32,000 bases of DNA from an archaeon GW2011_AR10 (GTDB lineage: Archaea; Iainarchaeota; Iainarchaeia; Iainarchaeales; GW2011-AR10), in the NCBI GenBank assembly GCA_000830275.1, contig CP010424.1, positions 1,020,001-1,052,000 on the forward strand, in the 5' to 3' direction. Below the pieces are notes generated by a model. That model was not told where the DNA came from and ran no database searches. It saw only the letters and a list, made by a program, of their open reading frames with translations. The translations under genes were made by a program, and so were the position numbers. Shown one piece after another: positions 1,989-31,535 of the stretch (position 1 is its first letter; the number at the start of each line of letters is the position of its first letter).

Positions 1989-2993
1989 GTGGTGTTTTTT
2001 TTGGCTTCAATCAAAACGGTCGGTTTGACTAAGAAATTCAAGGATTTAACCGCGGTTGACTCCGTTGATTTGGAGATTAAGAGTTCAGAGCTGTTTGGCT
2101 TGCTGGGCCCCAACGGAGCAGGCAAGACCACTTTCATTTCAATGCTTTCAACAACGCTTCTTCCAACTACCGGCAGCGCAACCCTCAACGGCTTCGATGT
2201 TGTAAGGGAAGCTGACAAGGTCAGGTCCAGCATTGGCATTGTTTTTCAGGACCCAAGCCTTGACACAAGGCTTACTGCTGAAGAAAACCTTTACCTCCAC
2301 GGAATGTTTTACGGAATGAGCGCCGAGGAAAGAAAGGAACGGATAAAGTTTGTGCTAGAACTTGTGGACTTGTGGGAAAAAAGAAAACTGGAGGTTAGAA
2401 CGTTTTCCGGTGGAATGAAAAGGAGGCTTGAGCTTGCAAGGGGCTTAATGCACAAGCCAAAAGTACTTTTTCTTGATGAGCCCACGCTCGGCTTAGACCC
2501 GCAGACAAGGCAGCACATATGGAAATACATCAAGAGACTGAACAGAAAAGAGAAGCTAACAGTCATTTTAACTACGCATTACCTTGAGGAAGCAGACTTT
2601 TTATGTGACAGGGTTGCCATAATTGATTTCGGGAAAATTGTCGCGCTTGACACCCCTTCAAACCTGAAGAAAAATATTCGGGGCGATGTCATCTGCCTTA
2701 AGTCATCTGATGACAAAGCCTTGAAGGAAGCTCTTTCAAAGAAACTGAAAAGAGAAATCGCTGTTACAGAAGATGATGGCGAGCTGTGCTTCAATGGTTC
2801 ATCTGAAGATCTGCCAGGGATAGTAAGGGTTGCAGACAAAAGCAAAATCAAGCTTTACTCAATGGAGCTCCACAAGCCAACACTTGAAGATGTCTTCCTG
2901 CACTTCACTGGCAGGAATATAAGGGAGAGCTTGCTTGGCAAATCAGACCAAGGAACTGCTTATCTGAGAGACTTTCAGAGGATTGTCAGATGA
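1989..2993 (+). CDS. ABC transporter ATP-binding subunit (ABC-2 / DrrA-type exporter)
   Basis: Walker A GPNGAGKTT, signature FSGGMKRRLELA and Walker B VLFLDEPTLGLD, with a C-terminal extension as in DrrA-like ATPases. The track start is GTG, so the true start may lie a few codons downstream. Confidence 0.9.
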   Translation: MVFFLASIKTVGLTKKFKDLTAVDSVDLEIKSSELFGLLGPNGAGKTTFISMLSTTLLPTTGSATLNGFDVVREADKVRSSIGIVFQDPSLDTRLTAEENLYLHGMFYGMSAEERKERIKFVLELVDLWEKRKLEVRTFSGGMKRRLELARGLMHKPKVLFLDEPTLGLDPQTRQHIWKYIKRLNRKEKLTVILTTHYLEEADFLCDRVAIIDFGKIVALDTPSNLKKNIRGDVICLKSSDDKALKEALSKKLKREIAVTEDDGELCFNGSSEDLPGIVRVADKSKIKLYSMELHKPTLEDVFLHFTGRNIRESLLGKSDQGTAYLRDFQRIVR

Positions 2994-3739
2994 ACACTAG
3001 CGGGTTTTATGGCTTGTGGCTCAGGGAACTGCTGCGGTTTTTTAGGTCAAAAACCAGAATAATTGGAACGCTCGGCATCCCATTTTTCTTTATACTTGTT
3101 TTTGGCTTTGGCCTAAGTTCGTTTGTTTCGGTTGAGGACACAACTTATTTTCAGTTCATTGTGCCAGGAATGATGGGCATGACTCTGTTGTTTCAGTCAA
3201 TGTTCGGCGGATTAAGTGTTATTGAGGACAAACAATTTGGTTTCTTTAAAGAAATTTTGGTTGCCCCGATTCCTAGGCCATTGGTTGTTTTAGGGAAAGC
3301 GCTTGGCACTGCAACAGTAGTAACAATTCAGGCAACGATGGTTATGGTTGCAGCGATGTTTCTTGGATTTTCATTCAATTTTTCTCTTCCAAGCATAGTT
3401 CTGGCGCTGTTTTCAATGTTTTTGGTTTCAACAGGCTTTGTTGGGTTCGGCTTGATTTTCGCAGCCAAAACAAATGACCCTCAGAGCTTTCAGATAATAG
3501 TAAACTTCCTGATTTTTCCACTGTTCCTTTTGGCGGGAGTTTTTTTTCCATTGGACAGCGTTCCTGGCTGGATGCAAGCAGTTTCTTTTCTGGATCCCTT
3601 AACTTACGGAGTTGATCTGCTTAGAGCAGCTTTAATAGGGTTAAGCTTTTTCCCAACATGGTTGAGCATTTCTGCCCTGCTGTTGTTTGATGCAATAGCG
3701 CTGCTTATTGCTTCCAGCTTCTTTTCACAGGCAGATTAA
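2990..3739 (+). CDS. ABC-2 type transporter permease
   Basis: 249 aa with about 6 TM helices. ATGA start/stop overlap with the upstream ATPase. Typical ABC-2 membrane-domain layout. Confidence 0.85.
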   Translation: MNTSGFYGLWLRELLRFFRSKTRIIGTLGIPFFFILVFGFGLSSFVSVEDTTYFQFIVPGMMGMTLLFQSMFGGLSVIEDKQFGFFKEILVAPIPRPLVVLGKALGTATVVTIQATMVMVAAMFLGFSFNFSLPSIVLALFSMFLVSTGFVGFGLIFAAKTNDPQSFQIIVNFLIFPLFLLAGVFFPLDSVPGWMQAVSFLDPLTYGVDLLRAALIGLSFFPTWLSISALLLFDAIALLIASSFFSQAD

Positions 3740-3816
3740 TCAGCCAAAAGAACAATCAAATAAATTTGAATTTTTAAAGCAAGTTTATTAAAATTTTGTT
3801 TTATTTGAATATTTGT

Positions 3817-3936
3817 ATGAAGCACATAGTTATTGCGCCATTCGATGGTGATTTAGGCGCCATATTGGATGGAATAAAGGAATTCACTACCGAAAAAATT
3901 GTTTTGACTCAACCCAAAAGATGCTTTGGCTTTTAA
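3817..3936 (+). pseudogene. 39-codon ORF that may be the N-terminal remnant of a Rossmann-like (DUF6293 / Csa3-CARF-like) regulator
   Basis: Hand translation: MKHIVIAPFDGDLGAILDGIKEFTTEKIVLTQPKRCFGF*. The first ~32 residues follow a beta-strand / Gly-loop / helix / beta-strand pattern typical of a Rossmann-like N-terminus. The frame then stops abruptly just before a highly structured non-coding stretch. Confidence 0.25.
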
Positions 3937-4200
3937 GTCGCGGTTTTTGGTCTCGGTGTCTTTTCAACACTTTGTCAAGTGAAATAAAAACACCTGTTTT
4001 CTTTTTGACAAAGTGTTGCGTTGACGGGTTCATGACGTCCATTAAATGTTGGGATACCCCTGCCTTTAGGCAGAGGAGGACGTCACAAAAGCACCTCCTG
4101 GTGGGGAACCGAGCCTGAACCGAAATTCAGGCCCGATGAAGGGAAACGTCTAAATCATACTTATTATGTCCAAATAATTTAGACGATTCTAGTATGTTTT
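3937..4200 (+). ncRNA. Structured intergenic region; candidate non-coding RNA of unassigned class
   Basis: Perfect 14-bp inverted repeat CAACACTTTGTCAA / TTGACAAAGTGTTG (3965-3978 / 4005-4018). 7-bp stem GACGTCC / GGACGTC (about 4034-4083) enclosing CTGCC-TTTA-GGCAG. 7-bp hairpin GCCTGAA-CCGAAA-TTCAGGC (about 4111-4130). 9-bp stem CGTCTAAAT / ATTTAGACG (about 4147-4185). The region is locally more GC-rich than its flanks. The strand is not established. Confidence 0.3.
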
Positions 4201-4228
4201 GGTGCATTTTCTTTTTAAACCTTTCCTG

Positions 4229-5176
4229 TCAGACGTCTTCTATCCCTTTTTCGCTTATCACGAAGAGGGCTTCTCCGTCAGGCAGTGAAGGGGAATCCAC
4301 AAGCTTTGCAACTCTTTTGTTTTCCTTGCTTTTCCTCAAATAAATTCTTGTTTTCGAGGCGTGTGCAAGCACGTTGCCTCCAATTGGTTGAGTCGGGTCA
4401 CCAAACAATATGCCTGGGTTTTCCATAACTTGGTTTGTTACCAGTATTGCAAGGTTGTTCATTTCAGCAAGCTTTGCTAATGTTCTCAGGTGCTTGTTTA
4501 GTTTCTGTTGCCTTTCAGCCAACGTGCCCCTGCCAATAAACTCTGACCTAAACTGTGCTGTGAGGGAGTCAACTATCATCAGCCTAATGTTTTTTTCTTT
4601 CACTAGGTCAGCTGCCTTTTCAGCCAGAAGCATTTGGTGATCTGAATTGTAGGCCCTGCTTATGTAAATGTTCTTTAGCACTTTTTCCGAGTCAAGTCCG
4701 TACCGCTTTGCAATTGCAATAATCCTCTCCGGCCTGAAGCTGTTTTCAGAGTCAATGTAAATGCAGTTACCGGCCAAACCACCTTTATCTTTCGGCATCT
4801 GAACCGTTACTGCTGTCTGAAAACACCATTGAGTTTTTGAAGAAGCAAATTTCCCATAAACTTCTGTTATTGATTGGGTTTCAATGCCTCCTCCTATAAG
4901 TGAGTCCACTTCCTTGCTGCCCGTAGTTATTTTCCCGATGTTTTCCCTTCTTTTGGCTATCTTGTCAGCAGTTTCATAACCCATTTCAAGTGCATCCCTT
5001 GCTGCCTTAATTGCTTTGTCAGCTGTTACCTCTCCCAATCCAGCTACTTCAACGAGTTCCATTGGAGATGCAACAGCAATTGTTTCAAGGCTCTTGTAGC
5101 CAGCAGAAATTAGTTTTTCAGCGCCCTGCGCTCCAATTCCAGGCAGGTCACTGATTGATTTGATTTCTTTTCCCAT
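4229..5176 (-). CDS. radA: DNA repair and recombination protein RadA (with an atypical Walker A motif)
   Basis: 315 aa. N-terminal HhH domain (LPGIGAQGAEKLISAGY), GGIETQSITEVYG, Walker B LMIVDSLTAQFR, and the NLAILVTNQV and GGNVLAHAS motifs are all RadA hallmarks. Confidence 0.9.
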   Translation of the reverse strand: MGKEIKSISDLPGIGAQGAEKLISAGYKSLETIAVASPMELVEVAGLGEVTADKAIKAARDALEMGYETADKIAKRRENIGKITTGSKEVDSLIGGGIETQSITEVYGKFASSKTQWCFQTAVTVQMPKDKGGLAGNCIYIDSENSFRPERIIAIAKRYGLDSEKVLKNIYISRAYNSDHQMLLAEKAADLVKEKNIRLMIVDSLTAQFRSEFIGRGTLAERQQKLNKHLRTLAKLAEMNNLAILVTNQVMENPGILFGDPTQPIGGNVLAHASKTRIYLRKSKENKRVAKLVDSPSLPDGEALFVISEKGIEDV

Positions 5177-5361: not shown

Positions 5362-6663
5362 TTATTGTTTGAACTGAATGCTCCGGGCAACCAATTCTTT
5401 TTCCCCGCCAAGCCCTTTCTTTACCCGTGCCTCAACCGTTGCTTCCCTGCCAACAACCTTTTCCTTTATTTCCTCGATTAATGCGTCAGGGCCTTTTTCT
5501 TCAAGCTCTTTCTTCATTTCTTCCCTGCTTTTCTCGATGAGTGTTTCAGCTTGTTTTCCGAAAAAAACGCAGCGCATGCTCCCGCTCTTGTCTTGCAGTT
5601 CAACCGCAACTATGAGGTTAATGTTTGGTTCTTCCACTTCGCCGCACTGCTCGCACACGTACCCTTCGCCTATCTGCTCCACTTTTTTGCTGCAGTTTGG
5701 GCAGACAAGGTAATGCAGTTTTCCTGGCAGGATTTCCTTTATTTTTGCTTTAACCTCAATGGTTTCTCCTTCCTCAAGTTTTGCAATCTCTTTCCTTTCT
5801 GCTCCAGAAACAACTGTGTCAAGTTCAAAGCCTCTGGGGTTTTGGAGAATGCGAGCCTGCCAGCCAAGTTGCAGCTCAACTCCGCGCAACCCGTCCTTTG
5901 TGTAAGCTCCTTCAATTTTCACGAGCATTCCTTGCCTCAGTTTTTTTGCCTCTTCCACCAAGTCATTCCACGCAGTGCACCTTGCAACAGCTGTTTCATC
6001 TGCAAGCTCAAAGCTCAGTAACTTTCCGTTCCTTCCTTCTCTTTCAAAGCTCCGTTCATCGAAAACCCTTGCAATTTTTCCAAAAACATCTGCGTTGTCA
6101 ATCCCTGCCTTCAGTTCCTTCACCTTCAACACAGCAGTGTTTGGCTCCGGGAACGCAGCATTTTTTTTCTTGTTCAAAATGAATTGCCCGCCATAATTTA
6201 GGCTCAACTGCTTTTTTTCGTTGTAGGTTGAAACAGAACAGTTTTTCAGAAGAAGTATGTCGCCTCTTTCAACTTTTTGCTCCCAGAGTTTTGCCACGTC
6301 GTGATGCCATAAAGTCAAGCGCACCTCCCCAGAATCGTCTGCCACAAGCAAATTGCAAAGCAGGCCCTTCTTTCCGTTCTTTTCAAAGCTTTTAGGCGAG
6401 AAAACATGCATTACTCTTGCAAGAACATCAACATTGTCCGTGCCTTCCTTTAGGCCAGCCACCTTTGTTTCAGTGCCTGAATCAAAGTCAAGGTTAACCC
6501 CCAACTCCTTTGCAATCATGAACGCGGCTCCTGACTCAGTCAACAAGCCTGAAAACCTGCTTTTTTTCTCGTCAATCATCCGCTGAACTTCCTCCCTGCT
6601 CTTAGAGGAAGCCTCAACTATTTTTCCTACCGCTGATTCAATGCTTTGAGTTGAAGGAGACAA
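5362..6663 (-). CDS. Replication protein A-type ssDNA-binding protein (multiple OB folds plus a zinc ribbon)
   Basis: 433 aa. The N-terminal helical domain (SREEVQRMIDEKKSRFSGLLTESGAAFMIAKELGV) is typical of archaeal RPA. OB-fold segments repeat, and a C4 ribbon CPNCSKKV...CEQCGE sits in the last OB fold. The track start is TTG. Confidence 0.8.
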   Translation of the reverse strand: MSPSTQSIESAVGKIVEASSKSREEVQRMIDEKKSRFSGLLTESGAAFMIAKELGVNLDFDSGTETKVAGLKEGTDNVDVLARVMHVFSPKSFEKNGKKGLLCNLLVADDSGEVRLTLWHHDVAKLWEQKVERGDILLLKNCSVSTYNEKKQLSLNYGGQFILNKKKNAAFPEPNTAVLKVKELKAGIDNADVFGKIARVFDERSFEREGRNGKLLSFELADETAVARCTAWNDLVEEAKKLRQGMLVKIEGAYTKDGLRGVELQLGWQARILQNPRGFELDTVVSGAERKEIAKLEEGETIEVKAKIKEILPGKLHYLVCPNCSKKVEQIGEGYVCEQCGEVEEPNINLIVAVELQDKSGSMRCVFFGKQAETLIEKSREEMKKELEEKGPDALIEEIKEKVVGREATVEARVKKGLGGEKELVARSIQFKQ

Positions 6664-6842
6664 ACAAAACCCCTAATATTAATTGCCTTAAATCCTTTTT
6701 ATTGTTTCTAAAAAAATTATGTATACTGGTTTTTTCACTTTTGGTTTCTTTTTTCACGTTCACTGGCCGTTATTTCTGGAATTTATCTGGAGTTTACTAA
6801 GATTTTTATATGTTCTTATTCCCATATATTTGAGTAATTCGC

Positions 6843-13426: not shown

Positions 13427-14242
13427 TCACATCAGGAAAGCATTCAGCACTTCAGGCCAAGCAATTGATGCAACAACCCCGAGAAAAACAAACGGGGCAA
13501 ATTTCGGCAGGTTCCTGTAAACCTTTACTTTATTAAAACCCAAAGCCTTAATGCGTTCCTGCAGCTTTTTGTCTATTACTCCCTTCATGCCTGCATTGAT
13601 TTTATTCGCTTCTTCTTCTTTCAAAAAATCTGATGCAAGAATGTCGTCTTCTTCCAGTTCCCCAATTTTTACCTCTTCCAAGAAAAACTCTTTTCTGATG
13701 CCGCGCTCCAATGCAAGGAATGCCAGCGCAAAAACCATTGGAATGCCCAGTGCAACAGCATAACTTATTGGTGCAATTCCTGCTGAAACCAGAAAATAAA
13801 AATAAACCACAAGCACCACGCCAAGAAAAATGCTTTTCCTAATGCCAGCTGAGTTGAATTTCCAGTCAATCCCTTTCCTTGCATATTTCATTACGTAAAA
13901 TACTGCAAGGAAAACAACTGCTGTTATTCCTGCAACAATCAGCACGCTCAAAATAAACACTGTGCCATTAAGAAAAGGCATAAGCAGTGCGGTTCCCGTG
14001 AAGAGCTTAACATCCCCGCCGCCAATTTTTCCAAAGTAGTAGAGGGCAAATCCCACAGCAAAAACAATGCCTGCAACAAGAAACGCGTTCAAGTCAAATT
14101 CAATTAGGTTGAAAATCACTCCCAATGCAATCATTGGGTATGTTATTCTGTCAAAAATCAGGCCTGTCTTAATGTCAGCGTAAGCTGCAAGCGCTGTTCC
14201 AGCCAGAACAAGTGCCTGCCTTAAAAAAAGCAGTTCCATCAC
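13427..14242 (-). CDS. A24-family aspartic prepilin/preflagellin peptidase (PibD/EppA/FlaK-like) with a C-terminal soluble extension
   Basis: 271 aa polytopic protein. First catalytic Asp context AYADIKTG and second catalytic motif GGGDVKLF (the GxGD motif of the A24 family). The start lies 5 nt downstream of the srp54 stop on the same strand. Confidence 0.8.
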   Translation of the reverse strand: MMELLFLRQALVLAGTALAAYADIKTGLIFDRITYPMIALGVIFNLIEFDLNAFLVAGIVFAVGFALYYFGKIGGGDVKLFTGTALLMPFLNGTVFILSVLIVAGITAVVFLAVFYVMKYARKGIDWKFNSAGIRKSIFLGVVLVVYFYFLVSAGIAPISYAVALGIPMVFALAFLALERGIRKEFFLEEVKIGELEEDDILASDFLKEEEANKINAGMKGVIDKKLQERIKALGFNKVKVYRNLPKFAPFVFLGVVASIAWPEVLNAFLM

Positions 14243-15671: not shown

Positions 15672-16619
15672 ATGTGCTTCAACAAGTTTTTTATTCTGCA
15701 AGTTCGTTTGTTTTTTGTGCCTAGAAGAAATTTCAAGTTTATGCCAGTGCATTTTCTGTGGTTCAAATCAAGGCTCGATAAAGGCCACCCTAGAACCCGA
15801 ATAGCCAAAGAGTTTTCCAAAAGGTTCGGCGGCAATGAAACTACGATAAAATCATATTTATCAAGATATTTTCCAGAAAACCTCACACTGGAGCAGGCAT
15901 TGTGGGAGTACAGGAAAACAGTAAAAACCCGTGAACAGAGAAGTGAAATTGCAAGGAGAAGAGCTGCTGCAAAGACTCCTGAACAGAGAAGTGAAATCGC
16001 AAGGAAAAGAGAGGCTGTAATGACTCCTGAACAGAGAAGTGAAAGAGTTAGGAAAGCTGCTGCTGGAATGACTCCTGAACAGAGAAGTGAAATCGCAAGG
16101 AAAAGAGAGGCTGTAATGACTCCTGAACAGAGAAGTGAAAGAGTTAGGAAAGCTGCTGCTGTAATGACTCCTGAACAGAGAAGTGAAAGGTCAAGGAAAG
16201 CTGCTGCTGCAAGGACTCCTGAACAGAGAAGTGAAATTGCAAGGAAAGCAGCAAGAATGCAAAGGTATAATTTGGTTAAAGACGTTATTTATGTTGAAGA
16301 ACTTCCTTTGCTGAATCGGTTATCTGAACGTGAGAAGGCAATAAAATTTGTGGAGTTATCTCCAGTTATTAGAACTATTGTAGGCAAGTTTAGGCGGAGA
16401 GCTGATTATGAAGATATTTTGGGGGTCGTAAATCTTGCAGTTGCCGAGTCCTTGGCTAAATGGGACAAGAGAGTGGATTTAACAAAACTGGTTGAAGACT
16501 CGGCGAAACTCCATTTAATAAAGTACTTTGGGCAACTAAAACGGTGGAATATTAGGGAAATTCCTATTGGCGATATTCGCAGTATAGATGCTTTGGTTGG
16601 TCTTGTGAAACACGAATAA
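15672..16619 (+). CDS. Orphan DNA-binding-like protein: N-terminal HTH-like segment, seven 16-aa basic repeats (TPEQRSE[IR]ARK...), and a helical C-terminal domain
   Basis: 315-aa track ORF. The first 23 codons look non-protein-like, so ATG 15741 (MPVHFLWFKSRLDKGHPRTRIAKEF...) is a plausible true start. The repeats keep the reading frame exactly. Confidence 0.6.
   Translation: MCFNKFFILQVRLFFVPRRNFKFMPVHFLWFKSRLDKGHPRTRIAKEFSKRFGGNETTIKSYLSRYFPENLTLEQALWEYRKTVKTREQRSEIARRRAAAKTPEQRSEIARKREAVMTPEQRSERVRKAAAGMTPEQRSEIARKREAVMTPEQRSERVRKAAAVMTPEQRSERSRKAAAARTPEQRSEIARKAARMQRYNLVKDVIYVEELPLLNRLSEREKAIKFVELSPVIRTIVGKFRRRADYEDILGVVNLAVAESLAKWDKRVDLTKLVEDSAKLHLIKYFGQLKRWNIREIPIGDIRSIDALVGLVKHE
15927..16262 (+). 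repeat. Seven in-frame tandem copies of a 48-nt unit, including a near-identical 96-nt double unit
   Basis: GAACAGAGAAGTGAAA recurs at 15933, 15981, 16029, 16077, 16125, 16173 and 16221, an exact 48-nt period. 15975-16070 and 16071-16166 differ at a single position. Confidence 0.9.
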
Positions 16620-20165: not shown

Positions 20166-20672
20166 CTATCTCCCAACTTTTCTCTTGATGTCCACTGCCC
20201 GCGCTGCCTTCTCTTTTTCTTTCTTCTCTTTCCTAAGAGCTTCTTTTGCTTCCTCTTCCTCTGTTTTTCCCTCTTTTTTGCCTTCCTTCTTCTCTTCCTT
20301 TCCCTCTTTTTTTGCTTCTGCTTTCTCTTCCCTTTTCTTCTTCCTGTCCTTTTCCTGCTCTTCCTTTCTTTTCTTGAATTCCTCTATTTCCTTGCTCCCC
20401 TTAAGGAAAACCCTTGCCTTTTTTTCCTCCAGCAAAACAGTTACATCAATTCTCCTAGGAATGTTTTTAGAGTGCTTGCTCAGAAAAGCGTTCACTTCTT
20501 CCCCCAAAAAAACGCTCTCCGCCTTCGAGTGCTTTACCGCGAACCTCTTGATTTCCTTAACAGCCTTTCTGACTCTCTTGCTTGTAGGCTGCCTGAAAAC
20601 ACTTGCCAAAGAAACAACAAAAGACGCTTCTCCTTCCCTCATTCCAATCCCTCTCAGATTTTTTTTCCTCAT
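20166..20672 (-). CDS. rpl31e: Ribosomal protein L31e with a long Lys/Glu-rich C-terminal extension
   Basis: The core FVVSLASVFRQPTSKRVRKAVKEIKRFAVKH...IPRRIDVTVLLEEKKARVFL matches L31e. About 70 residues of K/E-rich tail follow. The track ORF opens at GTG 20732; in-frame ATGs at 20672 and 20642 are more likely starts. Confidence 0.8.
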   Translation of the reverse strand: MRKKNLRGIGMREGEASFVVSLASVFRQPTSKRVRKAVKEIKRFAVKHSKAESVFLGEEVNAFLSKHSKNIPRRIDVTVLLEEKKARVFLKGSKEIEEFKKRKEEQEKDRKKKREEKAEAKKEGKEEKKEGKKEGKTEEEEAKEALRKEKKEKEKAARAVDIKRKVGR

Positions 20673-20988: not shown

Positions 20989-21033
20989 TTTTTAAACCCT
21001 CATAAACATTTTTATGTTCCTATCGTTCTGCAT

Positions 21034-21096
21034 TATAGCAAACAGCTTATATTTTTGAACTTTTTATTGCTGTTTGCTAGTTGCAAAATGCAATTT
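21034..21096 (+). repeat. Copy A of a 63-nt hairpin element (11-bp stem, 22-nt loop, adjacent mini-palindrome)
   Basis: Stem TAGCAAACAGC (21036-21046) / GCTGTTTGCTA (21069-21079), then TTGCAAAATGCAA. The 26-nt core 21067-21092 is identical to the reverse complement of 24553-24578. Confidence 0.85.
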
Positions 21097-21159
21097 CAAT
21101 GTCCAATTACTTAAGCGTTTTGCTATAACTTTCTATTACCCTGTCTGCATTCCTTATTT

Positions 21160-21471
21160 TCATTTTCTCTTGATTTTGAAATCCTTTTTTGAACCCAATT
21201 GCGCCAGAACCTGCTTCAGTTGTTCCTCGCTTAGTTTTCCTTCAATGTTCCCGCTTCTTGCATGGTAAAGAATTGCCTGCACTGCATTCAGGTAAAGCTC
21301 TTTGTTCACAAGCCTGACATTGTTTAGCCGCTCCCTTGCTTCCTCGGTTAAAACACTCTTCACCATGGAGTTCAACTGCATTTCAGCCTGAAGCCTTTTC
21401 TGTTCCTCCTTTTGTTTCCTGAAATAATTTTCCTTTAGCTGTGAGAGCTCCTCAAAGTTCTCTTCACTCAT
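21160..21471 (-). CDS. PDCD5/TFAR19-like dsDNA-binding protein (MTH1615 family)
   Basis: 103 aa. LTEEARERLNNVRLVNKELYLNAVQAILYHARSGNIEGKLSEEQLKQVL matches the family pattern. It holds the conserved position between S19e and L39e and has an ATGA overlap with the S19e stop. Confidence 0.8.
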   Translation of the reverse strand: MSEENFEELSQLKENYFRKQKEEQKRLQAEMQLNSMVKSVLTEEARERLNNVRLVNKELYLNAVQAILYHARSGNIEGKLSEEQLKQVLAQLGSKKDFKIKRK

Positions 21472-22052
21472 TTCTCTTTTTTCTCCTCTTTTTTGTGCTC
21501 CTTCTTCTGGTCTTTTTTCTTCTCTGTTTCCCTTGCTCTTTGCTCTTGTGCTCTCAGCGCTTCCCTTGTTTCCTTTGCTGCCAGGTCAGCTTTCTCTTTC
21601 CCCTTAACTTCCACTGCTTCCTTCTTTTTGTGCTTTAAGTGCTCTTGCACTTCCTTTGATTTCTTCACCAAAAGGCTTTCTCCTTTGCCGGTAATAATGC
21701 GTCCTTTCTTGGCTTTCTGTATGAGGCCCTCTTTTTCAAGCAGCTGAAGGCAAACCCTTATTATTTTTCCCGAAGCCATTCGCTTTTTCTCCGGTTTAAC
21801 TCCGCGGTTCTTTCTCCCGCCATAATAGCTTCTCAGGCTCCCGGTTCCAACAGGCCCATCACGGTAAACGCGGTAAAGAACTGAAGCGTTCCTCACAAAA
21901 AACCAGTCAGGATTTTGAGGGGCCCTTTCAACGTGCTGGCCTGTTTTCACGAAGTCAGCCCAAGCAGGCTTTTCCAGTTTTCCCTCAAATCCCTTTGCAA
22001 CCTCTTTAATGAGTTCCGAGGCCGGAACATCAAAAACTCCCAAAAAATCCAC
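21468..22052 (-). CDS. rps19e: Ribosomal protein S19e with a Lys/Glu-rich C-terminal extension
   Basis: The core DVPASELIKEVAKGF...PAWADFVKTGQHVERAPQNPDWFFVRNASVLYRVYRDGPVGTGSLRSYYGG matches S19e. About 60 residues of K/E-rich tail follow. GTG start. Confidence 0.85.
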   Translation of the reverse strand: MDFLGVFDVPASELIKEVAKGFEGKLEKPAWADFVKTGQHVERAPQNPDWFFVRNASVLYRVYRDGPVGTGSLRSYYGGRKNRGVKPEKKRMASGKIIRVCLQLLEKEGLIQKAKKGRIITGKGESLLVKKSKEVQEHLKHKKKEAVEVKGKEKADLAAKETREALRAQEQRARETEKKKDQKKEHKKEEKKEK

Positions 22053-22186: not shown

Positions 22187-22777
22187 TCAAGGTTCACAGT
22201 CTGCTTTAGTTGAAAAAGAGTCAGGCCTGTAAATTTTCAGTGTTCCGGTTGCAGTTAACAAATCCTCTCTGCCCTGGGTTTCAAGCCAGCCATCAGTTGA
22301 AGTTTCAGTCAAGTAATCATTTATCTGCCAGCAAATGGCATCATTGAATTTTGCCCAATAATTGTCGAGCGCATTACTAGCATTGCTTCCTGTAATTGCA
22401 ATTCTTAAATCCTGAATGTTTGGGTTTCCAATTCCACCAGGATAGCTGTCAGCATAAAACCTGTATTCTCTTGGGCCTCTAGTAAAGTTGTCGCTAAGCA
22501 CTAAGCCCCCAACAAATTCTGACTCGCATTTCCTTTCAGTTGCATCCCAACTGCACTCAAAATAAAAGCCGTCAATTGTAAAATTCTCTATCGCAGGATC
22601 GCAGATAGTTGAACTGCTGTGCCTTATGCAGATGCTGTTCGCAGCAGTTTTTGCCGCCTCAAAGCCACTGCTTGGAGCAAGGCCGCTAATCAACGCAACA
22701 ACTATTGCCGCAACAAGCACCACTCCCCCAAGCAAAAGAAGGTACTCCACTGCTGCCTGCCCTTTCACCGCATTCAT
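22187..22777 (-). CDS. Class III signal-peptide (archaeal type IV pilin-like, DUF361-type) protein 1
   Basis: The N-terminus MNAVKG-QAAVEYLLLLGGVVLVAAIVVALISGL has a short basic leader, Gly at -1, a QxxxExxxL motif and a hydrophobic helix. The globular part is Cys-containing and paralogous to the next gene. Confidence 0.75.
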   Translation of the reverse strand: MNAVKGQAAVEYLLLLGGVVLVAAIVVALISGLAPSSGFEAAKTAANSICIRHSSSTICDPAIENFTIDGFYFECSWDATERKCESEFVGGLVLSDNFTRGPREYRFYADSYPGGIGNPNIQDLRIAITGSNASNALDNYWAKFNDAICWQINDYLTETSTDGWLETQGREDLLTATGTLKIYRPDSFSTKADCEP

Positions 22778-22820
22778 TCATTACAAGAAACGCTTTTGCC
22801 GTATTTATTTGTTTTGGTTT
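22778..22820 (-). promoter_or_regulatory. Putative promoter (AAATAAATAC box) of pilin-like gene 1
   Basis: The minus-strand sequence upstream of ATG 22777 reads CAAATAAATACGGCAAAAGCGTTTCTTGTAATGA-ATG. The A/T box starts about 30 nt upstream. Its layout parallels the sequence upstream of gene 2. Confidence 0.35.
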
Positions 22821-22832
22821 GCGCTTAACGTT

Positions 22833-23600
22833 TTAGGAGATTTTGGTTAACTCAACATCGTCAAATAAAATTTGGTGGGGTTTTGGCACTCCTATAAAAG
22901 ACCCGCCAGATTCCGATCTAACTCCAATTTTCACGCTGCTTAAACCAGAAGAAATTGTTTTTTCAACACACAACTGCTGGTAAGTGGAACTAGTATCTAA
23001 AAGTTGCTCGCTTCCATCAAGGTAAACTTTGGCGGTTTTTCTGAAACTAGCGCCTCCTTCACGCACATAAGCGCACAGCCTGTAAGTTCCTGCTCCATAG
23101 GTTGCCAAATCAACTGTTTGTGACAGGCCGCTTCCAAACCAGCCAACGCCGTTCCATGAACCGGTTCTAGGTGCCGTTTCGTTCCGTCCCCCGAATCCAG
23201 TGCCTCCCCCGAACTGGTCACTTGCCCATAACCCCAAGTTCTCAAAGCTTGGCTCTGAAATTGCTACAGCAGCACCAGGGCTCCCACCAATTGCATAGCT
23301 TTCTTCCCTGCACAGTTTTTCAATAGTGCTCCATTCACAGTCAAATGTTTCTTCCTGAATTTTAACTTTTTTCCCTTCGATTGGGTCAGGCAATCCTGTA
23401 AAAGGATCTACATGGGTTGGGTCCCCATCGCATTCTGTTTTGCTTAATGCTTTCACGCATGCAGCATCAGCAGCTGTCTTTCCTGCTTCATGGGTGCTTC
23501 CTGCCGGAAGGCTGCTGATTATTGCGATTGCAATGCCTGCAACAAGCACTATGCCCCCCAAAAGCAGGAGGAATTCAGGAGAACCTTGCCCTCTGTTCAT
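22833..23600 (-). CDS. Class III signal-peptide (DUF361-type) protein 2 with a C-terminal lectin/CBM-like beta-sandwich domain
   Basis: The N-terminus MNRG-QGSPEFLLLLGGIVLVAGIAIAIISSL is an exact QxSxExxxL motif. The C-terminal ~140 aa (WASDQFGGGTGFGG...GSWNGVGWFG...YRLCAYVREG...LFDDVELTKIS) resembles carbohydrate-binding jelly-roll modules. Confidence 0.75.
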   Translation of the reverse strand: MNRGQGSPEFLLLLGGIVLVAGIAIAIISSLPAGSTHEAGKTAADAACVKALSKTECDGDPTHVDPFTGLPDPIEGKKVKIQEETFDCEWSTIEKLCREESYAIGGSPGAAVAISEPSFENLGLWASDQFGGGTGFGGRNETAPRTGSWNGVGWFGSGLSQTVDLATYGAGTYRLCAYVREGGASFRKTAKVYLDGSEQLLDTSSTYQQLCVEKTISSGLSSVKIGVRSESGGSFIGVPKPHQILFDDVELTKIS

Positions 23601-23640
23601 TGCATTAAAGAAGTGCTTTTGAAATATTTAATTTTTTGGG
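23601..23640 (-). promoter_or_regulatory. Putative promoter (AATTAAATAT box) of pilin-like gene 2
   Basis: The minus-strand upstream sequence is AAAAAATTAAATATTTCAAAAGCACTTCTTTAATGCA-ATG. It shares CAAAAGC..TTCTT..TAATG spacing with the gene 1 upstream region. Confidence 0.35.
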
Positions 23641-23939
23641 TTTTCCGATTCCGCGCTTGTTTTTCTTTCAAAGCCGCATTCGAGGCACTTAATCAGCAGA
23701 ATTGTTCCCTGCTTTGAGTGCTGTGCATTGTTTTCTTTCTTCAAAAAAGAACCGCATTTTTTGCAGAACCGTTTTTTCAGCTCGCTTGGAATCGTTGCCT
23801 TGTTTCTTGTGCTGATTTTTCTCGCAAGATTGATGTAGCGCCTGCTTCTTTCAGGGTGCCTTGAAAAGTTTTTTTCAGCTAACTCAAATAACCGAAAAAT
23901 TCTTTCAAGCGCAATTTCCTGCTGCTTATTTTTTTTCAC
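23628..23939 (-). CDS. rnp4: RNase P protein component 4 (Rpp21 / Rnp4)
   Basis: QQEIALERIFRLFELAEKNF...RRYINLARKISTRNKATIPSELKKRFCKKCGSFL...IKCLECGFER has the N-terminal helices and CxxC...CxxC zinc ribbon typical of Rpp21. The likely start is GTG 23939. The track ORF extends to 24008, deep inside the Nudix gene. Confidence 0.8.
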   Translation of the reverse strand: MKKNKQQEIALERIFRLFELAEKNFSRHPERSRRYINLARKISTRNKATIPSELKKRFCKKCGSFLKKENNAQHSKQGTILLIKCLECGFERKTSAESENPKN

Positions 23940-24432
23940 GCCCCCACCACTTGAAGAGTGCCCTGAATGAAGGAGTAACCTTGTTTTCTTTAACCAGCTC
24001 TCGCACATCGTAAAGCCCGAAAAATTGCCCTTCAGCCATTTTTTCTGTGTGTATCTTTATTCTGCCGTCATGCACGACAGTGAACAGAGTAATCAATTCC
24101 CTGTTGCGTCCGTCCCCAAAATCCGTTTTACCGAACTTTATCGGAAGCAAACCAGCAGAAAAACTGAGGTTTAACTCCTCTTTCAGGCCGCGCAGTGCAG
24201 CTTCCTCATAGCTTTCATTCAATTCCACTTGCTTCCCTACACTAGACTCCCACAAATTAGGGTAAAGGGGCTTGTCAGGCAACCGCTTCTGGAGGAAAAG
24301 CTTTGCCTCCCGGTTGAAAACCCACACGTGCACCGCGCGGTGAAGCGCCCCCATCTCATGCACCTCGCTTCTCGGCGCTGTTCCAACAACCCGGTCCGTC
24401 CTGTCCACCACTTCAACCAGTTTTCCATCCAT
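23926..24432 (-). CDS. Nudix-fold protein related to type 1 IPP isomerase (IDI-like)
   Basis: 168 aa. LHRAVHVWVFNREAKLFLQKRLPDKPLYPNLWESSVG resembles the IDI-1 / Nudix N-terminal pattern. The Nudix box is degenerate (GKQVELNESYEEAALRGLKEELNL), and the IDI catalytic Cys context (NSCC) is replaced by ESSV. Confidence 0.65.
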   Translation of the reverse strand: MDGKLVEVVDRTDRVVGTAPRSEVHEMGALHRAVHVWVFNREAKLFLQKRLPDKPLYPNLWESSVGKQVELNESYEEAALRGLKEELNLSFSAGLLPIKFGKTDFGDGRNRELITLFTVVHDGRIKIHTEKMAEGQFFGLYDVRELVKENKVTPSFRALFKWWGREKK

Positions 24433-24548
24433 GAAAAAAATAAGTGGTTGCTTTTTTTAAAGTGAACTATTTTTTTTGTTTTTTCCGCTAATTCAGCACC
24501 GTGCCAGGCTTTTTTGATATACGACAAAATGCTTATGTATTTGAACAA

Positions 24549-24611
24549 AAACTGCATTTTGCAACTAGCAAACAGCAAATTAATGATCAAAAATCAAAGC
24601 TGTTTGCTATA
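24549..24611 (-). repeat. Copy B of the 63-nt hairpin element (inverted relative to copy A)
   Basis: Stem TAGCAAACAGC (24566-24576) / GCTGTTTGCTA (24599-24609) with a 22-nt loop, preceded by TTGCATTTTGCAA. The 26-nt core 24553-24578 is the reverse complement of 21067-21092. Confidence 0.85.
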
Positions 24612-24613
24612 CG

Positions 24614-24621
24614 TTTAAATA
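24614..24621 (+). promoter_or_regulatory. TATA-like box (TTTAAATA) immediately after repeat copy B
   Basis: TTTAAATA lies at 24614-24621, about 155 nt upstream of the micro-ORF ATG. This implies a leader of roughly 130 nt if the box is used. Confidence 0.3.
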
Positions 24622-26444: not shown

Positions 26445-26565
26445 GGAAACCCATGAAGGCCGAGCCAGTGCCATGCAACGCATTCGCATCTTGCCGGCTG
26501 AGGCAGTACTACAGTCCCACTGAAAGTGGGACACGTACAAGGTGCCGGCTGACTTTTCAGCCGAA
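26445..26565 (-). ncRNA. GC-rich structured region directly 3' of tRNA-Gly; candidate non-coding RNA or structured trailer, class unknown
   Basis: Extended hairpin at 26502-26546: GGCA/TGCC, GTAC/GTAC and GTCCCAC/GTGGGAC stems with a 5-nt loop. A second hairpin GGCTGA-CTTT-TCAGCC lies at 26547-26562. GCCGGCTGA is a direct repeat at 26493-26501 and 26544-26552. The region is visibly more GC-rich than neighbouring DNA. The strand is not established. Confidence 0.3.
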
Positions 26566-26636
26566 TGCAGCCGCGGGGATTCGAACCCCGGCTGAGACCT
26601 TGGAAGGGTCTAATGCTACCACTACACCACGGCTGC
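26566..26636 (-). tRNA. tRNA-Gly (anticodon UCC)
   Basis: Minus-strand read: GCAGCCG-UG-GUGU-AGUGGUA-GCAU-U-AGACC-CUUCCAA-GGUCU-CAGC-CGGGG-UUCGAAU-CCCCG-CGGCUGC-A. It forms a full cloverleaf with a 4-nt variable loop, a canonical T-loop and no encoded CCA. Confidence 0.9.
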
Positions 26637-29074: not shown

Positions 29075-31186
29075 CTATTTAATTTTAACTTTTTTTGGCA
29101 GGCCCCCGCTGGTGTAAATTCCTAACGCCAGCAGCACCAAGTGCTCCACAATAATGGCAACTACTGTAATTGTTGGGTCAGTGAATGCGTTGAACACCAA
29201 GGGAAGTACTCCTGCAACCCAAGCAACAGCAAGCTTTTTGGCAGTGTGCAGTGGCCAGAGCCTTTCTCCGACAATGTAGGTTATTCCAACCAAGGAAAAG
29301 AACGAGAACACTATTATGAGGACATACGCAAAGTCCATTGAAGCGTTTTCTCCGAACACTTCTTCAATAAGCTGTGTTTCAACCGGAATAATCGGGGTTA
29401 CTTTTGGCCTTGCAAAGAACTCATCCTCTTTTTGCAATGACTGATTGTAAACCCTGAAAACAGTGTTACCTGGTTCTTCCACAATGAATTCAATCGGCTG
29501 GCCCTCCCTTACCTCAACAGTGAGAATGTTTCCGCTCGGCGGGATTATTTCAGCTGCAAACCCGAAAAGCTCTCTAAGGGTTGGATGCAACACCAGGATT
29601 CTCTGCACGTCTCCAACTGATAGGAGCCTGTCAAAGCTCAAGTACACTAGGTTGCTGGTCTGGTCAATTGGATTTGTTGAATCCTGCACTTCCTGGAAAT
29701 CAGAAATCAAGTCAAAGTCCGAGTCAATCAAATTTGTATTGGTTCCAAGACGAATTTCCTCTTCATCTGTTAAGCCATCGCCATCAGAGTCAAGCAAGCC
29801 AGTGCCGGTTTCCACCTGCTGGCATTCAGCGCCCTCAACGCATGCTCCCTGAACGCACACAAGGCAGCCAGTGCATTGCCCAGTATCTTTCCTGAAATCG
29901 TTGCAGTCCTTGTCCCTTGTAATGCAGTCTCCGTCCTGGTCAGCTAATGTCTTGCGGCAAAAGCTTCCATCACCGCTGCCGCCTCCTCCGCCGCCCCCAC
30001 CGCCTCCGCCCCCGCCACCATCACCGCCACTGCCAGAGCCGCAGTCTGCAGAGCAGTTGTCCTGGTTTTCGCCTGCATCACAGGAGCCGTTGCCGCAGGT
30101 TGGAAGGGGTTCGCTTACCACGATTAAGCCAGTAAGGCTTGGGTTAGTGGAAGAAAAGTACTGGAACGTGCCAGTGGAATTGAATATTCTGCTGAAAGCT
30201 GAATTAGGCGCAATAATGCCACTATCCCATTTGCCGTCAGGGTTAGGGGAAGTACCGGAAGTAGAGCTTTGGTTCACTGTGTCAAGGTTAATCCAAGTGA
30301 CAGTTCTTCCAACAGCAATTGAGGCATTTGAAGGGGAAAACCCAGAACCATTAATGAAAATGTGCGTAGAGTCCTCCACACAGTTATTGATTGGCGCATT
30401 AGAGCATGAAGCGCTGCAAGTGCTCGGCGCATTGCATTGGTCAATTGTGCATGTAACTGAATCAGGGCAGTCAGAATTTAGGATGCATGGGTTTGTTACA
30501 ATTCCGGAACAGCAGAAGCCAGATGAAACTGGTTGGGTTCCGCAGAGGCAGGGTTCGCTTACCGGCCCACTAGGGCAAGAATCAAGCACAACATTGCTGC
30601 ACTGCGCACTGCACGTTCCAGCGTTAACGCAAATATCTGTTGTAAGGGAATTGGAGTCATTGCAGCCAGCATCGTTAAAGCATGCAATAGGCGAACCGCA
30701 GCTGCTTACATTAGCTGAAGGCAAGGTAACTGTTACGGAAACATTTTGTGCATTGGAATTGCTTACAAGACCATTGTAAAGGTTCAGGTCGCTAACCCCC
30801 TGCCCTATCACATTCAGCTTAACCGTTGCAAGTGCCCCATTAGCAGGATTAATTTCCCCTGCAATTGTTCTAGTGCAAGCAACTTTCCCTACGTGGCCTG
30901 GTGCAAAAGTCCAGTCAGATGAGTCAGTGCAGAACTGTTCGCTTGGAGAGGAAAGGTTTCCTAAAAGTTTAGTGAAAGTGATGCTGTTGTAGGAGAGAAT
31001 GCTGCTCTTGAAGTTTAGGTCAAACTGGTAGCCGTAAAGGTTGTTTACGTTTGCAGCAACAACATTTACATCAACCGTTTGCCCTACTGTTAATTGCTGG
31101 CTTGAAACAACCGCATTGATGTTGCCTGCGCCAAAAACACTGCTAGCAAACAGCAGAACAAAAAAAACAATAACTGGTTTCTTCAA
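29075..31186 (-). CDS. Large multidomain surface protein: cohesin-like, Cys-rich modules, cupredoxin-like domain lacking Cu ligands, poly-Gly linker, TSP3/dockerin-like Ca-binding repeats, and a C-terminal triple-TM anchor
   Basis: 703 aa with a TTG start. Signal peptide present. Cohesin-like segment at aa ~22-157 (LYGYQFDLNFKSSILSYNS). Repeated C..D..C.D....T.D.C.N.(G/S)TC.A.C.N modules. Cupredoxin-like aa ~275-358 (AVGRTVTWINLD...GTFQYFSS) without the His/Cys/Met ligand set. CGNGSCDAGENQDNCSADCG motif. A run of 14 Gly (nt 29978-30019). DSDGDGLTDEEE and DSDFDLISD acidic loops. Three hydrophobic helices at the C-terminus. Confidence 0.75.
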   Translation of the reverse strand: MKKPVIVFFVLLFASSVFGAGNINAVVSSQQLTVGQTVDVNVVAANVNNLYGYQFDLNFKSSILSYNSITFTKLLGNLSSPSEQFCTDSSDWTFAPGHVGKVACTRTIAGEINPANGALATVKLNVIGQGVSDLNLYNGLVSNSNAQNVSVTVTLPSANVSSCGSPIACFNDAGCNDSNSLTTDICVNAGTCSAQCSNVVLDSCPSGPVSEPCLCGTQPVSSGFCCSGIVTNPCILNSDCPDSVTCTIDQCNAPSTCSASCSNAPINNCVEDSTHIFINGSGFSPSNASIAVGRTVTWINLDTVNQSSTSGTSPNPDGKWDSGIIAPNSAFSRIFNSTGTFQYFSSTNPSLTGLIVVSEPLPTCGNGSCDAGENQDNCSADCGSGSGGDGGGGGGGGGGGGGGSGDGSFCRKTLADQDGDCITRDKDCNDFRKDTGQCTGCLVCVQGACVEGAECQQVETGTGLLDSDGDGLTDEEEIRLGTNTNLIDSDFDLISDFQEVQDSTNPIDQTSNLVYLSFDRLLSVGDVQRILVLHPTLRELFGFAAEIIPPSGNILTVEVREGQPIEFIVEEPGNTVFRVYNQSLQKEDEFFARPKVTPIIPVETQLIEEVFGENASMDFAYVLIIVFSFFSLVGITYIVGERLWPLHTAKKLAVAWVAGVLPLVFNAFTDPTITVVAIIVEHLVLLALGIYTSGGLPKKVKIK

Positions 31187-31308: not shown

Positions 31309-31414
31309 GGGCTCGTGGTCTAGTGGCTTGTTCCGCCAGTTGATTGCTGTGGAACCCATCAATGACAACACGTTTACATCGTGTAGGTCGGCAGTTCGAA
31401 TCTGCCCGGGCCCA
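31309..31414 (+). tRNA. tRNA-Val (anticodon UAC) interrupted by a ~32-nt insertion (putative non-canonical intron) in the D-loop
   Basis: Acceptor GGGCUCG / CGGGCCC plus discriminator A. D-stem GUCU (31318-31321) / UGAC (31363-31366). Anticodon arm ACACG-UUUACAU-CGUGU (anticodon at 31375-31377). Variable loop AGGUC. T-arm GGCAG-UUCGAAU-CUGCC. The total is 106 nt, with 41 nt between the D-stem strands where 8-10 nt are expected. Confidence 0.8.
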
Positions 31415-31535
31415 TTCGGCTGAAACCTCAGCAGGCAAGGTGCAGAAAACCAGTTTTTCCGGTTTCTGTTCACCCACTTTTTGCTAATTGTGAAGCCAAA
31501 AAATATTTATATTAGAAAGGCCATGCTCTCTTTAA

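Follow-up and report, generated by a model that had tools for sequence, protein, structure and literature searches.

Two tandem modular pilin-like proteins with different C-terminal heads at the Rpp21-S19e junction of archaeon GW2011_AR10

We analyzed a 32-kb stretch of the genome of archaeon GW2011_AR10 (hereafter AR10; the whole stretch is called the window, and positions are counted from its first nucleotide) and found, between the genes for the RNase P subunit Rpp21 and ribosomal protein S19e, two adjoining genes that encode DUF361-type (Gln+1) modular pilin-like proteins. Both proteins combine a complete pilin module with a C-terminal module that most members of their family are without. 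The interpretation that we favor, with a probability of roughly 0.6, is that an A24 prepilin peptidase processes this tandem pair and that the two proteins are carried on a type IV-like filament, perhaps at its tip, each presenting a different binding head. The class of protein, its signal peptide and the grafting of heads onto it are already known; the new details are a four-Cys carrier family with orphan heads, a variable slot between Rpp21 and S19e, and a mosaic tract within gene 1. The source organism is a tiny groundwater archaeon of the DPANN group (Diapherotrites; alternative label Candidatus Iainarchaeum sp.), of which, to our knowledge, no culture has been obtained to date. Some source records already label both proteins as "class III signal peptide-containing protein". 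The two genes and their parts are as follows:

22187-22777, minus strand: gene 1 (pil1), 196 aa, exact protein match to AJF60628.1 / QT03_C0001G1145
22514-22777, minus strand: gene 1 leader and pilin module, the module being residues 7-88 with C50, C59, C75 and C84
22760-22777, minus strand: gene 1 leader MNAVKG, within the preceding span
22556-22722, minus strand: gene 1 mosaic hypervariable tract, nucleotides 56-222 of the coding sequence (codons 19-74), from strain comparison
22190-22513, minus strand: gene 1 head, residues ~89-196 (~105 aa), no Pfam family
22833-23600, minus strand: gene 2 (pil2), 255 aa, exact protein match to AJF60629.1 / QT03_C0001G1146
23589-23600, minus strand: gene 2 leader MNRG, with predicted cleavage after Gly4 and mature start QGSPEF (Glu at +5)
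23301-23588, minus strand: gene 2 pilin module, residues 5-100, in which a small four-Cys domain comes after the hydrophobic N-terminal helix
22836-23294, minus strand: gene 2 head, residues 103-255, a predicted eight-stranded beta sandwich and a sequence orphan

A preliminary description of this DNA had assigned class III signal peptides to both open reading frames (ORFs), and the assignment holds. Gene 1 begins MNAVKG/QAAVEYLLLLGG... and gene 2 begins MNRG/QGSPEFLLLLGG...; each thus has a short polar leader with a final Gly, Gln at +1 and Glu at +5, and then about 20 hydrophobic residues. Both reach the gathering score (23.7 bits) of the Pfam family PF04021 (Class_IIIsignal, formerly DUF361), gene 2 at 26.1 bits and gene 1 at 23.7 bits. 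The segments MNAVKG/QAAVEYLLLLGGVVLVAAIVVALI and MNRG/QGSPEFLLLLGGIVLVAGIAIAII show the features by which DUF361 leaders are recognized (PMC3875500), and the DUF361 pilins that EppA processes in Methanococcus maripaludis have been described with the same leader features (PMC3875500, PMC2910488). On the strength of this match to EppA substrates, cleavage is predicted after the Gly. A six-frame pattern scan of the window detected no other ORF with such a signal peptide, leaving the pair as the only two. The model TIGR04205, which describes class III proteins associated with archaeosortase D / PIP-CTERM, scored 14.1 bits against a cut-off of 65 bits and covered the signal peptide alone.

A frameshift in one metagenomic variant of gene 2 (P0131) is what might be expected if the ORFs were chance reading frames or decayed pseudogenes. 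This reading is effectively refuted: both proteins reach the Pfam gathering score, several independent assemblies contain both ORFs intact, gene 1 and its counterpart in a second strain are a single nucleotide apart outside the mosaic tract, and the module that the two proteins share belongs to a family of 769 proteins.

That shared module comprises residues 5-91 of gene 1 and residues 3-106 of gene 2, which align with 40% identity (E 5e-11). The paralogy is limited to the first ~100 residues, and the remainders do not align. The earlier view of the pair as tandem paralogues is upheld, and we infer that they arose by tandem duplication. The Cys pattern that had been noted in both proteins also proved to be a family trait, as C48, C57, C88 and C97 of gene 2 were invariant in an alignment of 12 family members. 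When gene 2 was searched exhaustively with phmmer against 1.84 billion representatives, 11 proteins came back, all by way of the N-terminal part and most of them 83-118 aa long, and a profile built from the module alignment retrieved 769. The best 120 of these 769 matches were mostly 80-120 aa in length and carry PF04021; where named, many are listed as "class III signal peptide-containing protein" from Diapherotrites, or as "UPF0333 family".

Among 124 collected proteins, nearly all of them family members, the C..C...C..C pattern occurred in 91, and 108 had four or six Cys residues in the mature part. Their median length was 95 aa, the leader usually had 5 residues, and only 10 were at least 150 aa long. 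Because the family is mostly short and carries all four Cys residues, the part shared by genes 1 and 2 is a complete short pilin, and more than a signal peptide. By its sequence profile the family appears to be a four-Cys short pilin found mainly in DPANN archaea and usually occurring alone. One short member (P0004) adjoins two other class III genes and a Peptidase_A24 gene. Among the long members, an ILEI domain was detected in P0006 (E 5.9e-14) and a weak match to a right-handed beta-helix in P0011, so that head swapping on the four-Cys carrier recurs outside the AR10 pair. In a model of full-length gene 2 (mean predicted local distance difference test score, pLDDT, 51), the module was built from a helix at residues 8-29 and a second one at 37-53, together with a hairpin and a third helix, with pLDDT reaching ~84 only at residues 11-20.

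Two observations on gene neighborhoods touch this family. On an unrelated aquifer contig (L003), a cohesin-domain protein adjoins class III genes of the four-Cys family (2972-4312, 4343-4831 and 6001-6801); the window itself has a gene for a cohesin/TSP3 protein at 29075-31186, 5.5 kb from the pair, and this likeness may be a coincidence. Some 8-9 kb beyond position 1 of the window, on contig L087 (786-2400), two adjacent DsbA/thioredoxin-like genes are followed by a glutaredoxin gene, and these might matter for disulfides in Cys-rich pilin modules.

Only gene 2 had been credited with a head in the preliminary description, yet gene 1 carries a C-terminal domain of its own, ~105 aa long (residues ~89-196), which has no similarity to the head of gene 2 and matched no Pfam family. 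The extra domain of gene 2 is present as described: it is a Gly/Trp-rich stretch of 153 aa (residues ~103-255) with the C-terminal end ILFDDVELTKIS, and is predicted to be all-beta. Neither a word-indexed search nor the exhaustive phmmer search detected a relative of this head besides itself. A Pfam search at E values up to 10 gave nothing significant (best match PA-IIL, E 0.053, 14.3 bits against a 21-bit cut-off), and neither did a search of the PDB sequences, where noise began at E 0.17. Neither head is therefore a recognizable functional domain in terms of significant Pfam families.

Single-sequence AlphaFold models placed eight beta strands in the gene 2 head, both in the full-length protein (pLDDT 51) and when the head was modeled alone (pLDDT 53), the low values being due to the lack of alignment depth. 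Foldseek searches of the PDB with both models returned mostly carbohydrate-binding module (CBM), lectin and receptor-binding jelly rolls, at E values of 1e-4 to 5e-3 and template modeling (TM) scores of 0.35-0.5. The matches included CBM22, CBM35, CBM36, CBM61 and CBM70, the lectin BC2L-C, the pore protein Ib of iota toxin and Cry toxins, these at E 3e-4 to 5e-3, as well as the lectin EclA and the tail fibre gpJ of phage lambda; against the CBM-type matches the models deviated by a root-mean-square 4-10 Å. Given the low pLDDT we treat these fold matches as weak. The head does resemble CBM22/35/36/61/70 and related jelly rolls in its length (theirs being ~130-150 aa), in its all-beta prediction and in a terminal strand, FDDVELT, and these folds were the top Foldseek matches of both models; it differs from them in giving no sequence-profile match, in models of pLDDT ~52 and in that no binding-site residues were identified. 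The earlier proposal of a lectin- or CBM-like head is thus weakly supported, by the all-beta models and the modest jelly-roll matches but by no homologue in Pfam, the PDB sequences or the protein database. A jelly-roll fold is our best guess. A CBM/galactose-binding-like beta sandwich would be the most likely form of it, which would make a glycan the best guess for a ligand, although this is a weak inference from the models; "lectin head" is a plausible but tentative label.

The pilin reading would also require a processing enzyme. A Peptidase_A24 gene, encoding a prepilin (class III signal) peptidase, lies 8 kb from the pair (13427-14242, minus strand; PF01478, E 8.8e-13) and has both catalytic Asp motifs, ADIKTG and GGGDVK. 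It starts 5 nt after the SRP54 stop codon, and with this spacing the two genes are probably co-transcribed. We regard the peptidase as a candidate processing enzyme for both pilin-like proteins. The preliminary description reported no assembly ATPase or platform gene in the window, and this stands: neither was found there or in the 10 kb that adjoin each end, as reached through other assemblies of the same organism, which makes about 50 kb in all. AR10 has been listed among the DPANN genomes with type IV pili (PMC8561730), and in Methanococcus pilin genes are normally scattered away from the assembly genes (PMC3875500).

Taken together, these features suggest the following course of events. 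A separate TATA-type promoter would probably drive each gene and yield a leaderless or near-leaderless mRNA, and the protein would insert into the membrane through its N-terminal hydrophobic helix. The A24 prepilin peptidase would then cut the 4-6-residue leader after the Gly, giving a mature protein with Gln1 and Glu5, and the short-pilin module would deliver that protein either to the body or to the tip of a type IV-like filament, whose shaft would consist largely of short pilins from genes at other loci. The two paralogues have gained C-terminal heads that differ, one of ~105 aa and the other of ~153 aa, and these would be displayed outside the cell as ligand-binding modules.

Several points weigh against this interpretation. 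The missing assembly ATPase and platform gene are one, and incorporation of either protein into a filament is a predicted step. In M. maripaludis, the large DUF361 proteins MMP0600, MMP0601 and MMP0709 are dispensable for piliation (PMC3875500). Gene 1 lies exactly at the Pfam cut-off. The gene 2 head belongs to no carbohydrate-binding family that a Pfam sequence profile could detect, and its structure models are of low confidence with modest Foldseek scores. Finally, in P0131 the frameshift falls after residue ~150, the tail continues in the frame of the window ORF 22997-23245 and the head is truncated, so that the head may be dispensable, unless this is an assembly error.

The main rival, which we consider rather unlikely, is that the two are surface-anchored binding proteins that form no filament. 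The class III helix would then serve as a membrane anchor or short pseudopilus stalk, and the heads would capture substrates or hold the cell to a surface, an arrangement already proposed for sugar-binding proteins with class III signals in the Sulfolobus bindosome. Such signals are widely attached to archaeal non-pilin binding proteins, with 4364 candidates counted in a 2026 preprint (10.64898/2026.04.22.720090), and both the want of assembly genes nearby and the fact that Methanococcus does not need its large DUF361 proteins for piliation speak for an anchor. What speaks against it is the carrier, which in AR10 is a full stand-alone pilin of ~95 aa including the four-Cys domain, together with the finding that neither head matches a solute-binding protein family. 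The Sulfolobus proteins are alike in setting a signal peptide and hydrophobic helix on a globular extracellular binding domain; their heads, however, are solute-binding proteins of ATP-binding cassette transporters (10.64898/2026.04.22.720090), whereas the AR10 proteins join a full short-pilin module to small heads that are beta-rich or of no known family, with no linked transporter.

We find it hard to credit that one or both proteins are the major subunits of a distinct filament of their own. Each gene does have a well-formed putative promoter, and archaea such as Haloferax express several pilins, each of which may form a distinct filament. Nevertheless, a head of 105-155 aa on every subunit fits poorly with the packing of a ~95-aa family, no short non-modular pilin adjoins the pair, and modular pilins in bacteria are minor, tip-located subunits (PMC8179133, PMC9934059).

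The pair has close counterparts in two better-known filament systems. In M. maripaludis, the DUF361 proteins that are EppA substrates (EpdA-C, the major pilin MMP1685 and the larger MMP0600, MMP0601 and MMP0709) share with the AR10 pair the Gly-terminated leader, Gln at +1, Glu at +5 and the hydrophobic helix (PMC3875500, PMC2910488). There too, pilin genes lie away from assembly genes, and the larger paralogues MMP0600 and MMP0601 are adjacent, apparently as an operon (PMC3875500). The AR10 proteins differ in belonging to a DPANN-centered four-Cys subfamily and in bearing orphan C-terminal heads, and their processing, by a peptidase that may be EppA-like or FlaK/PibD-like, and their role in piliation are predictions of the present analysis. 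In bacteria, Raynaud et al. named such an architecture a modular pilin (PMC8179133). The Streptococcus sanguinis proteins PilB (pilin plus vWA) and PilC (pilin plus ConA-like lectin) likewise consist of a small complete pilin with a grafted C-terminal binding module (PMC8179133, PMC9934059), again as two differently headed modular pilins in one organism, and the gene 2 head may have a parallel in the lectin module of PilC, which has been modeled at the tip of the pilus (PMC9934059). In contrast to the archaeal PF04021 proteins, the streptococcal ones have an IPR012902-type N-terminus, and there is no homology between the two beyond the general class III design. Their heads are recognizable and have demonstrated ligands, whereas the AR10 heads match no family and binding by them is predicted only; and their genes lie in the pil locus, whereas those of AR10 are orphans beside ribosomal genes.

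The setting of the pair among housekeeping genes was examined by comparing S19e loci. On the minus strand, the order of genes is NUDIX, Rpp21, gene 2, gene 1, S19e, PDCD5-like, L39e, L31e, aIF6, LX, PfdA and FtsY, with SRP54 and Peptidase_A24 further on. The immediate flanks are:

23628-24008, minus strand: Rpp21, RNase P subunit, upstream flank (PF04032, E 2.6e-13); the true start of this ORF is likely further downstream, beside the NUDIX stop codon
21468-22052, minus strand: S19e, ribosomal protein, downstream flank (PF01090, E 4.6e-44)

The comparison set held 80 metagenomic S19e loci and one GTDB locus, annotated with the window proteins and an Rpp21 profile; an S19e search of the GTDB species representatives had yielded this one locus only, from Woesearchaeota, at 53% identity. 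Fifty-nine loci were informative, as their sequence reached 700 bp or more beyond S19e on the upstream side. Rpp21 lay upstream of S19e on the same strand with a gap of 63-475 bp in 34 of these and with a gap of 767 bp in one, and in the remaining 24 no Rpp21 was detected upstream. Direct adjacency of Rpp21 and S19e (at most 500 bp, same strand) in 34 of 59 loci marks the pair as an insertion at this junction, as had been proposed. The usual spacer of a few hundred bp suggests that the junction is a boundary between transcription units, and less so the interior of an operon.

What occupies the junction differs among the closest sampled relatives. Four lineages (AR10, L007, L008 and L009) have S19e cores that are 65-69% identical to one another. 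In L007, Rpp21 and S19e are 174 bp apart with no pilin gene; the L008 junction holds two unrelated small ORFs; and in L009, with an S19e core 66% identical, S19e is immediately preceded by two class III genes in tandem (2-673 and 706-1359). The L009 proteins are almost the same in their N-terminal ~45 residues but have different heads, and neither has the four-Cys domain, with the contig ending inside the first gene; all that this pair has in common with the AR10 pair is the class III N-terminus. A Woesearchaeota locus (L006) has a class III gene after L31e instead. From the differing junctions of the four lineages we conclude that the space between Rpp21 and S19e is a variable slot, and the proximity of the AR10 pair to ribosomal genes is most simply explained as insertion at a permissive operon boundary. 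We considered a recent foreign origin of the cassette and rejected it, as the G+C content of the pair (0.41-0.50) is similar to that of the neighboring genes. A bolder picture would make the junction, within a DPANN subclade, a recurrent docking site for tandem modular pilin pairs, in which heads are exchanged between lineages, Cys loops are reshuffled between strains, the supply of adhesin is tied to growth and the gene 2 head represents a new glycan-binding family; we regard this as a long shot.

Two further features were observed in this neighborhood. A palindromic element of ~100 nt, similar to a miniature inverted-repeat transposable element (MITE), is present in two inverted copies (21030-21135, plus strand, and 24511-24616, minus strand) whose 63-nt arms are 87% complementary; the copies lie 3452 nt apart and bracket PDCD5-like, S19e, both pilin genes, Rpp21 and NUDIX. 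The copy between PDCD5-like and L39e is absent from the near-identical strain L001, and the other is present in L001 and L002. A long hairpin is predicted for the element (-30.1 kcal/mol, z -5.2), and an Rfam search gave no match to it. In addition, S19e and L31e have long Lys/Glu-rich C-terminal tails (21468-21630 and 20166-20330), which also occur in L007-L009, with shorter proteins at most other loci.

We then considered whether the pair is expressed together with its ribosomal neighbors. The 43 nt upstream of the two ATGs match at 30 of 43 ungapped positions (70%) with a TATA-like box in each, which agrees with the earlier remark that these regions are alike, and the likeness may reflect a promoter consensus as much as duplication. 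The promoter-like elements are:

22802-22820, minus strand: gene 1 promoter-like element (putative function), A-rich AAACCAAAAC followed by TATA-like box AAATAAATA
23625-23643, minus strand: gene 2 promoter-like element (putative function), AAACCCAAAA followed by TATA-like box AATTAAATA

Both boxes are preceded by an A-rich stretch and end exactly 24 nt before the ATG, and that of gene 2 contains the Rpp21 stop codon (23628-23630). Other genes of the window, among them Tmk, NUDIX and the transglutaminase-like gene, also have TATA-like boxes at comparable upstream distances, and those of genes 1 and 2 are probably genuine promoters of leaderless transcripts. On the other side of the pair, a T5 run lies 3' of gene 1, and S19e has a Shine-Dalgarno-like GGAG and possibly a TATA box of its own ~100 nt upstream.

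The preliminary description had suggested co-expression of the pair with the ribosomal genes. In that case the cassette would be read through from NUDIX-Rpp21 into S19e, and the level of adhesin would track growth-rate-controlled ribosomal expression. The genes from NUDIX to FtsY do all lie on one strand, the gaps are short (27 nt from the Rpp21 stop to the gene 2 ATG and 55 nt between genes 2 and 1) with no T-run in either, and in a second lineage, L009, a tandem pair of class III genes likewise lies just before S19e. Yet both genes have a TATA box of their own at the standard distance, gene 1 is followed by the T5 run, and the 63-475 bp that normally separate Rpp21 from S19e, in 34 loci, suggest separate units. 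Moreover, among the four closest lineages the junction is empty in one and holds unrelated small ORFs in another, and class III genes in DPANN are perhaps numerous enough for three occurrences near the cluster to arise by chance. As judged from these signals, coupling to ribosomal gene expression is not supported and seems improbable. Independent expression of the pair, at what would be a boundary between transcription units, fits the promoter-like elements better.

Comparison with a second strain pointed to a localized exchange within gene 1. A contig from another sample (L001) was 99.3-99.96% identical to the window over 11 kb, with most neighboring genes at 100% and gene 2 identical. Between the two alleles of gene 1, 39 aligned columns differ (33 substitutions and a 6-nt indel), all within nucleotides 56-222 of the coding sequence, a tract that starts where the helix ends and takes in the first three Cys residues of the module. 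Synonymous divergence (dS) in the tract was 0.41 and nonsynonymous divergence (dN) 0.18, and dS was 0 in the rest of the gene; a further allele (P0003) is 90% identical to gene 1. Mutagenesis of the kind driven by diversity-generating retroelements was rejected as a source of the tract, since all types of substitution occur (they are not A-specific), dS is 0.41 and a template copy is lacking. Gene conversion, with gene 2 or a silent local copy as its source, was likewise considered, and no donor copy of the tract was found in the window or in L001. The tract looks like a diverged allele imported by recombination, and its position in the protein would fit a surface-exposed region. Bacterial pilins have variable exposed regions, which the gene 1 tract resembles.

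How DPANN archaea attach to surfaces and partner cells is little known, and pilins with variable heads are plausible determinants of specificity. For AR10 itself, the dependence on cell-cell attachment to which the preliminary description alluded is speculative. The locus is a compact example in a closed genome, with one short-pilin carrier, two unrelated heads, a nearby candidate peptidase and a mosaic loop that varies at the strain level. It extends the idea of the modular pilin, documented so far mainly in bacteria, to the archaeal PF04021 family, and is not a new kind of system.

Elsewhere in the window, an ORF at 15672-16619 (plus strand, 315 aa, no Pfam match) contains seven tandem 48-nt units (15879-16310) that encode a 16-aa repeat. 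The only structured RNA that an Rfam search detected in the window was a tRNA-Gly. A 44-nt inverted repeat (26543-26586 and 31394-31437) is 80% complementary; one arm overlaps the end of this tRNA-Gly(TCC) (26566-26636), and the other contains the tRNA T-arm-like sequence GTTCGAATC at a place where no tRNA was called. The two arms bracket the thymidylate kinase gene and the genes for a 571-aa transglutaminase-like protein and the 703-aa cohesin/TSP3-repeat protein.

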